Virus record (IMG/VR): IMGVR_UViG_3300049736_000695
Coordinates: 14,400 to 78,399 of that record
Direction: 5' to 3' (one strand)
Length of the DNA stretch: 64,000 nt
Source: a virus
Below are positions 10,855-21,059 of this stretch, one piece after another. The translations under genes and the position numbers were made by a program. The stretch's first letter is position 1. Every line of letters starts with the position of its first letter. The notes beneath the pieces are model-generated. The model ran no database searches. It was given only the letters and a program-made list of their open reading frames with translations, and had not been told where the DNA came from.

Positions 10855-11514
10855 TTAAGGTACGTTAATATCACTATCAGTAGAAAGTAAATAACCGCCT
10901 AACAATATTTGACCGATAGAATCTTTTATAGTAAATGGAAATACATGAGAAAAATCTATACTATCGAACTGAAAGTTACTTTTTACTACTAAGTTATTTA
11001 CAGTAGCATGACTTATATACGCACTATCTTCTACATTTAATTTATTAAAGCTTGCGCTATCATAATCTATATATTCACCTGATAAGTATTTAATTCTTCC
11101 ACTATCAAATTGAATTGACTGACCAGATAAGAAAGCAATTTCTGCACTTTCAATATGTGCGTCTACAAAATCGAGTTGATGCCCTCTTAAGATATGAGTG
11201 AATGCTGAATCAACATCAGCACTATCTGCATACATGTAGTTTGCTCGCACTCTATTAATAACTGCACTATCAGCATAAATCGTAGAAACTTGCAGCGCTC
11301 CACCAGAATCAAATAGTGCAGCTGAAACACTATCTATTTCACGGTGTAGATGATTAAGAGCTGAAACAAAATTTGAATCATTCTTACCAAACCTAGAAGA
11401 TTCAAAATGAGAATCAAGTAAATCTAGATCACCGAAATTATCTGACAGCACATTATTCTTAGCAATCCAGGTGCCGATAGAATTTGAAGTCTGTATTTGT
11501 ATTCTACGTGTCAT
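10855..11514 (-). CDS. DS-rich fibre-like virion protein
   Basis: N-terminal fibre-attachment-like segment (TWIAKNN..FGDLDLL..NFVSALN); 13 DS dipeptides; late promoter upstream. Confidence 0.65.
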   Translation of the reverse strand: MTRRIQIQTSNSIGTWIAKNNVLSDNFGDLDLLDSHFESSRFGKNDSNFVSALNHLHREIDSVSAALFDSGGALQVSTIYADSAVINRVRANYMYADSADVDSAFTHILRGHQLDFVDAHIESAEIAFLSGQSIQFDSGRIKYLSGEYIDYDSASFNKLNVEDSAYISHATVNNLVVKSNFQFDSIDFSHVFPFTIKDSIGQILLGGYLLSTDSDINVP

Positions 11515-11530
11515 GTTCTATCTCTTGTTC

Positions 11531-11538
11531 TATTTATA
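11531..11538 (-). promoter_or_regulatory. T4-type late promoter TATAAATA
   Basis: Exact motif 16 nt upstream of ATG 11514. Confidence 0.75.
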
Positions 11539-18475: not shown

Positions 18476-19831
18476 TTAAAATTGAATAATAACTTTAACG
18501 TCTTCATTTTGTGCAATGCTTCTATCAACCGGAGATCTGTTATCAATAAACAATACTTCACCAGTTGAAGGTAATACTTCTGGTAATATAGCTGCTGAAT
18601 CTACTGTTCCTTCACCGGCTCCATTTGTTTCTTCAATTAATTCTCCTGGTTGAAAAGCTACAAAACCAGTGGCATTCGTTTGGTGATAATATAGAATATC
18701 TGAATCTACTTCATCTATATATGCTTCTGCTAAAGTAGTTGCACCACGAATAATTTTATCTGCAGTAAATTGTGTAATAATCGCGCCAAGTTTCATAGAC
18801 TTAAGCGCATTACCCGTTGTTTCTGTAAAGATTGAACCTGAATTACTTTGTATATCTCTTATTAAACCGACTTGTCTAAAATCTTGATTTACAATAAAGT
18901 CACTATCAGTTCCCTTTAGTTCTGCATGGAACATGACCGATGCTGATTTAAGATCTTCGCGTGGATCACGGCCAATACCAGAATCAGGTCCGAGTACTGC
19001 TCGTGCTGTAGCATTAAGTGTTGCACCTCCACCAGTAATTGAAATCGTGGGATTCGTATAACCCGAGCCATGCCCTGCAACATCACCGTTTGTACTATCA
19101 TCCATACGAATACGAACAACTTGTCCCGTTGCTGAATCAATAGTAATATTAAAACTAGCATTGTTTCCATTAGGATCTGTAATTGTTGCAGTTGGAACAC
19201 TCGTATAACCTGCTCCACCGTCTGTTACAATAATACTTAATATTTCACCGGGTGTTGCCGCATTTTGTACGGCGGCTTGTTTAAGCTGAATACCAGTTGA
19301 ATTAGAATCAGTTGTGTCTTGTAAAAGTGTAGGCATAAAATTTGCTGATAAGAAATTATTTGCTCTTTCAGCACTAATTGTAAATAGGAATTTCCATACG
19401 TAACCATCAGCTTCTCTACGAGAATCAAGATTAGCATGAGTAGGTTGCTCAATAGAAGGACTTGCTGCGCCAGTAGCATCACGTCCAGTTTCTAAACAGA
19501 CATAGACTTGACGTGATTCATTCATTATATAATACGGCAGTGTAGGATATCCTCCTTGCTGATCATCATACTGTGAGTAAATTCTACCAGATGACCATGT
19601 ATTACGTGGAACAACGAGTGATGTAGCTTCAACTTTCTTTACAGACTGTAAGCTATTTCTAAATGCCTCAGTAGTAGTTGGAGTGTTAGTAGGTGTTGGG
19701 ACCGTATCTGAAGAATCCCACTGCTCTGATCGTCCTATACCAATATAATACTTTCTTGTATCATTAGTAAATTGATCAAAGAAGTCCTGTGCAATTTGTC
19801 TTCTTAGTGCGTCTGTTACAATCGCTGGCAT
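18476..19831 (-). CDS. Baseplate wedge subunit, T4 gp8-like
   Basis: YYIGIGRS..W, VVPRNTWSSG, VYVCL, DGYVWKFLFTI, DFRQVGLI, GEVLFIDNR..NEDVKVIIQF. Confidence 0.9.
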   Translation of the reverse strand: MPAIVTDALRRQIAQDFFDQFTNDTRKYYIGIGRSEQWDSSDTVPTPTNTPTTTEAFRNSLQSVKKVEATSLVVPRNTWSSGRIYSQYDDQQGGYPTLPYYIMNESRQVYVCLETGRDATGAASPSIEQPTHANLDSRREADGYVWKFLFTISAERANNFLSANFMPTLLQDTTDSNSTGIQLKQAAVQNAATPGEILSIIVTDGGAGYTSVPTATITDPNGNNASFNITIDSATGQVVRIRMDDSTNGDVAGHGSGYTNPTISITGGGATLNATARAVLGPDSGIGRDPREDLKSASVMFHAELKGTDSDFIVNQDFRQVGLIRDIQSNSGSIFTETTGNALKSMKLGAIITQFTADKIIRGATTLAEAYIDEVDSDILYYHQTNATGFVAFQPGELIEETNGAGEGTVDSAAILPEVLPSTGEVLFIDNRSPVDRSIAQNEDVKVIIQF

Positions 19832-19844
19832 TTTCTATATCCTA

Positions 19845-21059
19845 TTAAGTACTAATTTGATTTCCAAGTGCAATTCTTCTGTAATATCCCGCATCACTGT
19901 CGTAGACTGCAAGACAAGGTGCACCGGAATTACCGTTATTAACAAAAATTGTATTGCCATGTGGCACACTGTTTGGTACAGTATTTACTTCATAATTTCT
20001 AAAATCAATTTCTACTGCTTTGGCTCTTACATAATCAGAATCAACTGTTGCTTGAACATCCGAATCAGTAAATGCTGCTCTAGGTAGTGCAAACCAGCCA
20101 TCGCTATCTTTAAAGTTAAAATCTTTTGTTGCGCTATTGTAGTGAACTGTACCTTGACCGACAGAGCCACTATTAGTTGAATTATGACCGAGCTGTATAT
20201 AACCCGCAGGAGTATTCGAATCTCCGATTCTAATTTGTGGTGCGTTTTGGCTAAAGTGTACATAACCAAGACCATCAATTGTGCCAAAATTAAACTTAGG
20301 CGATCTTAGATTTACACTACTAGAATCTACAATTGAGTTACCTTTAAGGTCCATAGAATTTTCGACCTTAATATTTGCTTCAATTGGTCGACCAAATGTA
20401 ATATTACTTCCATCATTTTTAATTGTAGTATCACCTAAGTGAATAGTTGAGCCACTTAAATATAAGTCTTTCCATTTACGAGCAGAATCGCCTAGATCAT
20501 ACGCGCTATCAATTGAAGGTACAACGTGACCAGCAATGGCTGTTAATTTTGTAAAGAGTGCAGAATCAGTACCGGCAAGTTGTCTAGCCTGAACATATGC
20601 AGAATCAATAAGAACAATGGCTTCAGCCGAATCAATTGAATTAGCTTGAACAATAAGTAGTGTGGCACCTGAATCCTGTGCAACACCAGTTCTTAATGCA
20701 ATATAATCTGAATCAACTGTAGTATTAATAATATTAATTGTAGCTGCATTTACAACTGCACTAATATTTGTATCTAGAACTAGAGTTCCACTTGAATCGG
20801 GTAGGTTGATCGTATTATCTTTAGTAGGATTAATAACGCTTAGTGTAGTTTCAAAAGAATCTGCTGTACCTTCAAATATAACTTCATTACTATCAAAGGT
20901 AACACCTAAATTAGCAGCAGCACCAGAAGTAACTTGCAGAGTTCTTACATCAGTGTAAAGTTCATCGAAATTATCGTTTATCTTATTGCCAGCAGTGCGT
21001 AAATCGTCACCGGTACCGTCATTACCAGTACTTCCGACATTAATAGTTTGCTTACCCAT
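19845..21059 (-). CDS. gp9/gp10-like baseplate tail-fibre connector, DS-rich
   Basis: N-terminal KQTINVG..GNDGTGDDLRTAGNKINDNFDELY; YDLGDSARKWKDLYLSG fibre motif; 16 DS. Confidence 0.75.
   Translation of the reverse strand: MGKQTINVGSTGNDGTGDDLRTAGNKINDNFDELYTDVRTLQVTSGAAANLGVTFDSNEVIFEGTADSFETTLSVINPTKDNTINLPDSSGTLVLDTNISAVVNAATINIINTTVDSDYIALRTGVAQDSGATLLIVQANSIDSAEAIVLIDSAYVQARQLAGTDSALFTKLTAIAGHVVPSIDSAYDLGDSARKWKDLYLSGSTIHLGDTTIKNDGSNITFGRPIEANIKVENSMDLKGNSIVDSSSVNLRSPKFNFGTIDGLGYVHFSQNAPQIRIGDSNTPAGYIQLGHNSTNSGSVGQGTVHYNSATKDFNFKDSDGWFALPRAAFTDSDVQATVDSDYVRAKAVEIDFRNYEVNTVPNSVPHGNTIFVNNGNSGAPCLAVYDSDAGYYRRIALGNQIST

Follow-up and report, generated by a model that had tools for sequence, protein, structure and literature searches.

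A conserved Asp-Ser motif marks fibre and outer baseplate proteins in a single marine lineage of T4-like phages

Why should the fibre and baseplate proteins of a marine T4-like phage place a serine directly after an aspartate (DS) so much more often than shuffled sequences do, and what could these pairs be for? The question is raised by a 64-kb stretch of viral DNA (here the window; ~35% G+C), positions 14,400 to 78,399 of IMG/VR virus record IMGVR_UViG_3300049736_000695, which lies within a 78.4-kb viral contig (G000) of ~45% completeness (CheckV); results of absence on this record apply to that 78-kb, 45%-complete sequence. An earlier note, made from the letters alone, had proposed that the DS pairs are acceptor sites of a phage-encoded O-glycosylation system that covers the virion with a glycan shield. 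We found that the DS enrichment is genuine and strong, that it is confined to one lineage and that the pairs are exceptionally constrained, and we favour, with a probability of about 45%, the explanation that DS is the core of a short structural repeat motif in the fibres and the outer baseplate.

On recount, every DS tally of the earlier note proved exact (Table 1), as did the observation that 13 of the 22 Asp residues of the 219-amino acid (aa) fibre-like protein precede Ser while the reverse pair, SD, occurs only twice. The DS richness ascribed to the listed proteins held in part: four of them are strongly enriched (pooled, 60 DS vs. 14.1 ± 3.4 in shuffles, shuffle maximum 28, n=5000), whereas the DUF4815, 525-aa and 422-aa proteins carry no significant excess. 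Outside the window, a giant 2082-aa fibre encoded just upstream (L001:5022-11270, minus strand) holds 57 DS vs. 18 expected, and a 521-aa protein holds 8 vs. 3.2. As had been claimed, the pairs are not a DNA repeat, because the Ser codons that follow Asp are a mixture of AGY and TCN, and a DNA-level explanation of the excess is thereby ruled out. The companion pair DT is depleted in the DS-rich proteins (observed/expected ratio, O/E, 0.48).

The enrichment is limited to fibre and baseplate proteins. In record G001, a close relative whose gp8 is 79% identical, the major capsid protein (3 DS vs. 2.1 expected) and the portal-sized (4 vs. 2.2), sheath-sized (7 vs. 3.6) and tube-sized (none) proteins are not enriched, which gives no support to the idea of a shield over the whole virion. 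Whole-record scans returned six proteins at z ≥ 3.5 on the window's own contig (one of them a 228-aa protein of the first sugar cluster with 3 DS only), six each in G002 and G007, five in G001, two in G006, one in Phage C48C1, and none in G008, G009 or Pelagibacter phage Mosig.

The trait also belongs to one lineage of marine T4-like phages, not to protein folds. It recurs, always in these protein families, at 32 IMG/VR loci that share the baseplate synteny, while homologous baseplate and fibre proteins of the Pelagibacter podophage HTVC011P, the cyanophages P-TIM40 and S-CAM4 and the Pelagibacter myophage Mosig are without enrichment, and C48C1 is enriched only in a long connector protein (z=3.5), in which DS begins each repeat segment (IRSDSEINSLI, LIDSADATAIV; helical-looking by eye). 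A tree of gp8 places the DS-elevated sequences in a single clade, of which two members, L043 and C48C1, are secondarily low. The first of these (IMGVR_UViG_3300040751_002148, a 22-kb contig), nested within the DS-rich clade, is DS-poor throughout (1 DS in its gp8) and lacks the gp9-like gene and the 219- and 391-aa genes, and would provide a natural 'loss' contrast. By gp8 identity the nearest isolates are distant (C48C1, for which no host is given, 34%; Mosig, 29%; cyanomyoviruses, ~26%), and the hosts of the nearest cultured relatives are Pelagibacter and cyanobacteria. Our searches found no cultured member of the DS-rich clade, which is present in Tara and IMG samples, no tblastn match among isolate phages for a repeat-rich piece of the giant fibre or for the 391-aa protein, and no megablast match for the DS-rich region.

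What surrounds the pair is informative, as the conserved unit is not the bare dipeptide and has a longer consensus, hydrophobic-D-S-Ala/small-x-hydrophobic, with I, V, L, A or F at -1, Ala at +2 in 36-52% of the sites of the DS-rich fibre families (otherwise G, S, D or N) and V, I or F at +4. Counted over 125 sites, the +2 residue is A in 39%, G in 17%, D in 14%, S in 11% and N in 7%, in agreement with the composition first noted. The units are also regularly spaced. Giant fibres have a sharp peak of DS spacing at nine residues (61 of 247 gaps vs. 6 under the null), exemplified by LDSAEAIxLIDSAYVQARQ, and many DS of the gp9-like connector lie within (V/I)DSxY(V/I)xxR units; in the 219-aa family, 49% of the gaps are multiples of five vs. 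18% under the null, with peaks at 5, 10 and 15, and distant homologues are plain repeats (VDSAIIDSAEIRNLDV..VDSATIRRL..IIDSAYIDSATI). The earlier statement that DS does not mark a structural repeat is thus right in that the proteins differ in fold, and wrong in that the spacing is regular within the fibre proteins. Despite the clear five-residue register, membership of the pentapeptide repeats was not significant (1 of 20 members of the 219-aa family matches Pentapeptide_4, E=0.071). Clusters of the form DSD and DSxDS occur in the 391-aa and DUF4815 proteins. The nonapeptide IDSAYVQAR was found in at least 119 IMG/VR stretches, nearly always in DS-rich fibre-like open reading frames, the largest of which reach 4241 aa with 111 DS, and every such record large enough to judge is a T4-like myovirus.

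Conservation sets the pairs apart from their surroundings. In five-way alignments of the gp9-like, gp8-like, 525-aa and DUF4815 proteins, no other dipeptide is as conserved as DS (34 of 37, or 92%, invariant vs. 41% of all dipeptides and 45% of SD), and E and T seldom substitute for its two residues. In the DUF4815 protein all 14 DS residues are invariant, compared with 54 of 97 other Asp and 32 of 85 other Ser, and the gp9-like connector fully keeps 14 of its 16 DS in five clade members (75-82% identity). Many of the columns that stay invariant in the 391-aa and 219-aa families, down to 35% identity, are the D or S of a DS pair: about 20 of 51 such columns among 36 homologues of the 391-aa protein, in which the insertions of distant homologues are DS-rich too, and five DSA sites at which D, S and A are invariant in 20 homologues of the 219-aa protein down to 37% identity, so that Ala at +2 is itself fixed at several positions of that family. 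The gp8-like wedge protein behaves differently. Its nine DS sites are all invariant within the close clade, yet only five of the nine are hot spots among 136 family representatives, the other four being lineage-specific; other lineages place DS elsewhere and hold a similar density (mean 6-8 DS vs. 3 expected at ≥35% identity, with no excess below).

At its N-terminus the 219-aa protein has a helical anchor that carries the motif GDLDxL; its middle part repeats DS(A) in a register of 5/15 residues, and a small beta domain forms the C-terminus. It has its N-terminal anchor and a C-terminal ...LSxxDSD end in common with the 391-aa protein. The common N-terminal motif, M.R+....N....I.K.N.....GDLD.L, resembles the N-terminal anchor of T4 gp9/gp10, and the common C-terminal domain (..GGYLLS.DSD..) was predicted confidently by AlphaFold (predicted local distance difference test, pLDDT, 82-91). 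Elsewhere the models were poor: that of the 391-aa protein (36 sequences) was unusable (pLDDT 34.5), and that of the 219-aa protein (50 sequences; pLDDT 64.8, predicted template modelling score 0.27) was confident only in the small C-terminal domain. It shows N-terminal helices, a continuous extended strand of 60 residues over the DS repeats and the C-terminal beta domain; such a picture is common when an intertwined trimeric shaft is predicted as a monomer, although the confidence here is low. Foldseek found no analogue of this model in the PDB, sequence searches of the PDB with the 219-aa family profile, a giant-fibre repeat segment and the gp9-like protein returned no structure with the repeat, and we found no solved structure or Pfam family with the D-S-A unit. 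Beyond its DS repeats, the giant fibre has, within residues about 700-870 and 1250-1980, a glycine-rich domain (PF21722), a repeated beta domain that is 38-47% identical to podophage tail fibres (Pelagibacter, Roseobacter and Limnohabitans), and a C-terminal domain that resembles a tailspike (PDB 7rfv).

We reasoned that the lineage may reuse a hydrophobic-Asp-Ser-(Ala/small)-x-hydrophobic motif to build its fibres and outer baseplate proteins, with Asp and Ser serving as caps or at turns. For the giant fibre and the gp9-like connector, where the motif begins units nine residues apart, it would suit a helix N-capped by Asp/Ser and held by a hydrophobic staple; for the 219- and 391-aa proteins, the 5/10/15 register with its alternating hydrophobics would suit turns in a shaft that is either beta-solenoid-like or an intertwined trimer; and in gp8, a surface or insertion region peculiar to the lineage that also prefers this turn motif could account for the moderate excess. 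Phage fibre shafts and helix N-caps are known for short units that recur periodically, in which small or polar residues are fixed where a turn or helix begins and hydrophobics keep in register. The DS units are likewise periodic, have hydrophobics in register and are limited to fibre proteins, but a D-S-A unit that spans several protein families of one lineage is unusual. The regular spacing, the longer sequence context, the near-invariance to 35% identity, the restriction to fibre and baseplate and the depletion of DT all support a structural role. Several observations weigh against it: no confident three-dimensional model backs capping or turns, and the PDB yielded no solved structure with the repeat; homologous folds in Mosig, P-TIM40, S-CAM4 and the gp8 of C48C1 manage without the motif; gp8 has held its DS density although four of its nine sites are lineage-specific; the trait co-occurs with a cluster of glycosyltransferase (GT) genes; and regular repeat positions can be glycosylated, as in AIDA-I/TibA (PMC4358343).

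These last points lead to the alternative that the DS serines accept a modification made in the cytoplasm by the phage's own enzymes. O-glycosylation by the second sugar cluster (Table 1) would be its most plausible form, and it would decorate the fibres and the baseplate rim, not the whole virion, with the regular repeat presenting the acceptor Ser. We regard this alternative as a serious rival, though less probable than a structural role, and its fuller form, in which a marine T4-like clade O-glycosylates the serines of a periodic motif on its fibres and baseplate rim with its own GT25, sulfotransferase and 226-aa-protein cluster, possibly using a sulfated or methylated sugar, as rather unlikely. 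In its favour, at least five proteins of different families are enriched, the non-fibre gp8 among them, and DS is conserved above every other dipeptide. The best internal argument for selection on DS itself comes from gp8, which keeps its DS density despite partial turnover of sites, since a structural motif in a fixed fold is unlikely to show such turnover. Conversely, the earlier note had named regular ladder positions in advance as an observation that would count against glycosylation, and regular DS spacing is what the fibre proteins have.

The distribution of the candidate enzymes bears on the same alternative. The second cluster is the only gene set that we found to co-occur with the DS-rich trait. 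GT25 genes are present on the window's own contig and in G001-G004, G006, G007, G010, G015, G017 and G019, and absent from Mosig, C48C1, P-TIM40, S-CAM4, HTVC011P, G008 and G009; the gene for the unclassified 226-aa protein is present on the own contig and in G001-G003, G006, G007, C48C1 and G015-G017, and absent from Mosig, P-TIM40, G008 and G009. GT25 therefore tracks the DS-rich records and is missing from the DS-poor ones, and the 226-aa protein occurs in all DS-rich large records (and in C48C1). The co-occurrence with GT genes that the earlier note had proposed to look for is there in every large record tested, for both GT25 and the 226-aa protein, and no DS-rich phage without the second GT cluster, a case named as damaging to glycosylation, turned up among these large records. 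However, because the DS-rich genomes all fall into a single clade of the gp8 tree, the association amounts to one evolutionary event at the level of the clade and is weak evidence. Furthermore, G006 has both genes and yet only its fibre is DS-rich, its gp8 being not significant. The remaining proteins of the window's genome have a DS O/E of 0.67 (p=0.0025), which we considered as a sign of an active enzyme and rejected: control phages span 0.60-0.93, and there is accordingly no sign of off-target avoidance.

The enzymes themselves are fewer than first thought. Of the approximately 10 GT-like proteins of the earlier note, four lie above Pfam cut-offs (two GT8 and two GT25) and two more are sub-threshold only; the sulfotransferase, the carbamoyltransferase and the DegT aminotransferase were confirmed, while the methyltransferase has only a weak NCBIfam match. 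The 78-kb record yielded no member of a recognised protein-O-glycosyltransferase family, and GT2, GT4 and GT9 are absent from it. The hint that the 226-aa protein is related to Maf (Maf_flag10) is sub-threshold (PF01973, 13.6 bits vs. a cut-off of 34.6, E=0.059); its Atlas neighbour cluster has PF01973 in only 34% of members, and a profile of 20 homologues searched against PDB sequences recovered no Maf, Cst-II or sialyltransferase, the best match being 2la3, an uncharacterised nuclear magnetic resonance structure (E=0.01). A Maf- or GT42-type assignment is thus unsupported beyond the sub-threshold Pfam and Atlas hints. Homologues are very numerous in marine viromes (1066), and the family has the invariant motifs GNGD, C..N, CGH and HH.H. 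In G007, a 152-kb relative that still holds six DS-enriched proteins, the homologue (G007:C1:133765-134347) is broken by in-frame TAG and TAA stops, and may be a pseudogene or a sequencing error. Finally, the GT clusters of marine T4-like phages are usually ascribed to modification of the host surface or of DNA (PMC12801897).

Precedents for glycosylated serines of this kind exist, and we compared each with the DS proteins. Virion glycosylation as such has reportedly been described for mycobacteriophages, in work cited by PMC12801897. In the O-glycosylation of Bacteroidota, a lipid-linked glycan is transferred to exported proteins, whereas T4-type baseplate and fibre proteins assemble in the cytoplasm. 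The Bacteroidota sequon is D-(S/T)-(A/I/L/V/M/T), later extended with S/C/G/F at the third position, and a soluble periplasmic glycoprotein is the named example (PMC8698959). Both are three-residue motifs led by Asp-Ser, Ala is the commonest +2 residue here, and of the 125 sites, 47% agree with the classic set and 76% with the extended one. However, Thr is unused, D or N stands at +2 in 22% of sites, the motif is longer and periodic, the relatives of this phage infect Pelagibacter and cyanobacteria, and the acceptors would be virion parts assembled in the cytoplasm, with no signal-like hydrophobic stretch evident by eye at the N-termini of the six DS-rich proteins. The analogy on which the earlier note had leaned therefore fails, and we do not count the DS sites as Bacteroidota sequons.

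Closer in setting are systems that act on repeats. In staphylococcal serine-aspartate repeat (SDR) adhesins, serines beside Asp are O-glycosylated by the soluble enzymes SdgA and SdgB, with protective effect (PMC3794999, PMC8561734). The SDR tracts are long and uninterrupted (SDSDSD), in contrast to the isolated DS units set 5-20 residues apart in ordered repeats here, and SdgA/SdgB are of the GT4 type, for which (PF00534) the 78-kb record has no match. The passenger domain of AIDA-I and TibA is a beta-helix, and its heptosylation is cytoplasmic. Serines at regular positions of these passenger-domain repeats are hyperglycosylated by BAHT heptosyltransferases (PMC4358343), and for this reason a regular ladder position is compatible with an acceptor site; on the other hand, the repeat differs in sequence and length, and no GT9/BAHT-like gene (PF01075) was found in the incomplete record. 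Maf enzymes O-glycosylate surface Ser/Thr of flagellin, a filament protein, and are thought to do so in the cytoplasm before assembly (10.1101/2020.06.03.131540). The likeness here is the weak PF01973 signal of the 226-aa protein, and no nonulosonic-acid pathway was seen. The 226-aa protein is much shorter than full-length Mafs and would presumably lack the domains that flank the Maf core.

Two further explanations leave the serines unmodified. The DS pairs could be ligand sites, with rings of Asp and Ser in trimeric fibres binding seawater Ca2+ or Mg2+, so as to stiffen or trigger the fibre, or contacting host glycans. The restriction of the trait to fibres and baseplate rim of marine phages fits such a role, as do the strict conservation of both residues, for which E and T rarely stand in, and perhaps, by inference, the DSD and DSxDS clusters; but the pairs match no known Ca-binding motif, and the hydrophobic flanks and the Ala at +2 are better suited to packing than to ion coordination, so we consider it improbable. 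Shared ancestry, in which one DS repeat module was duplicated or recombined among fibre genes and DS itself is unselected, would account for the common termini of the 219- and 391-aa proteins, for the two adjacent paralogues of the 219-aa family at many clade loci and for the matches of the giant fibre and the 521-aa protein (C-terminal part of the model) and of the gp9-like protein (N-terminal part) to PHROG 677. It fails because DS is under stronger constraint than adjacent positions (92% vs. 41% for the surroundings); gp8 and the DUF4815 protein are not repeat proteins and nevertheless conserve every DS, insertions in distant homologues gain new DS, and we hold this explanation to be highly improbable. 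All explanations other than a structural motif or a modification acceptor, taken together, we judge unlikely. Between glycosylation and the structural motif, the choice is undecided.

The genomic setting is that of a T4-type phage. Pfam and PHROG matches identify a baseplate module on the minus strand that encodes gp5-like, gp25-like, gp6, wedge, gp9/gp10-type N-terminus, gp8 and DUF4815 proteins, and the order gp6, wedge, gp9/10-N, gp8, DUF4815 is that of a T4-type baseplate periphery (Gp6-like_1st; Baseplate_wedge; T4_gp9_10_N, with T4 gp10 2fl8 at E=1e-6; BW3TFN/Phage-Gp8; phrog_438 at E=1e-76). The contig also encodes gp32 and other replication genes, and the module is flanked by the two sugar clusters.

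The first of these clusters, in which two radical-SAM proteins were confirmed, lies at the same position and in the same orientation in Mosig, with identities of 40% (GT8-like), 50% (methyltransferase-like), 56% (carbamoyltransferase), 61% (radical-SAM) and 52% (DegT), and the DS-poor L043 lineage carries it too. Because both have the cluster without DS enrichment, it is not tied to DS, and we ruled it out as a DS-modifying system; it looks like a conserved pelagimyophage-type pathway that is not peculiar to this phage. The set of radical-SAM, DegT, carbamoyltransferase, methyltransferase-like, GT8-like and nitroreductase genes (window 1-9183 plus L001:13492-14103) is kept gene for gene beside the baseplate module of Mosig (L010, 30922-41237) at 24-61% identity.

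Table 1. Features of the window, with DS counts and shuffle z scores where obtained
Feature	Coordinates	Strand	DS	z	Remarks
219-aa fibre-like protein	10855..11514	-	13	6.3	highest DS density; 59% of Asp precede Ser
391-aa paralogue-like fibre protein	11534..12709	-	22	8.6	
525-aa protein	12917-14494	-	5 (2.7 expected)	1.5	adjoins DUF4815 protein; not DS-enriched, DS unusually conserved
DUF4815 protein, 1323 aa	14494-18465	-	7 (7.2 expected)		6 of the 7 are DSD; not DS-enriched, DS unusually conserved
451-aa gp8-like baseplate wedge protein	18476..19831	-	9	4.0	non-fibre; moderate enrichment
404-aa gp9-like baseplate-to-fibre connector	19845..21059	-	16	7.0	T4 gp9/gp10-type N-terminus
422-aa protein, family unassigned	59826..61094	-	6 (2.7 expected)	2.3	DS in N-terminal half; marginal; no Pfam or PHROG match
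First sugar cluster	1225..9183	+			DegT aminotransferase, two radical-SAM, carbamoyltransferase, two GT8-like (7770-9183)
Second sugar cluster	44296..50752	-			GT25 pair, sulfotransferase, weak-match and unannotated proteins
Unclassified 226-aa protein	44296-44976	-			sub-threshold MptE/Maf_flag10 hint
Nucleotide-diphospho-sugar transferase candidate	44969-45652	-			weak match
Two GT25-like proteins	45645-47200	-			above Pfam cut-off
Sulfotransferase	47197-47718	-			confirmed
Sugar O-methyltransferase candidate	49201-49935	-			weak NCBIfam match
Small accessory proteins: EF-hand motif protein, glycine-zipper (Rick_17kDa_Anti) membrane-type protein, NT5C-type deoxynucleotidase	50925-51356, 43299-43718, 51419-51961	-			

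Tail fibres and the baseplate rim set host range, and a six-residue motif that recurs across unrelated proteins of an abundant marine lineage points to an unrecognised building rule or modification code. If the motif is structural, it would be a new fibre repeat, and giant fibre genes in marine viromes, thousands of which are now labelled 'hypothetical', would become easier to annotate. If instead the serines are acceptors, the lineage would have a fibre-specific virion glycosylation system with a defined sequon, as far as known the first with such a sequon among Gram-negative or marine phages, and a function would be given to the GT clusters of marine T4-like phages, which are now ascribed without evidence to modification of the host surface or of DNA.

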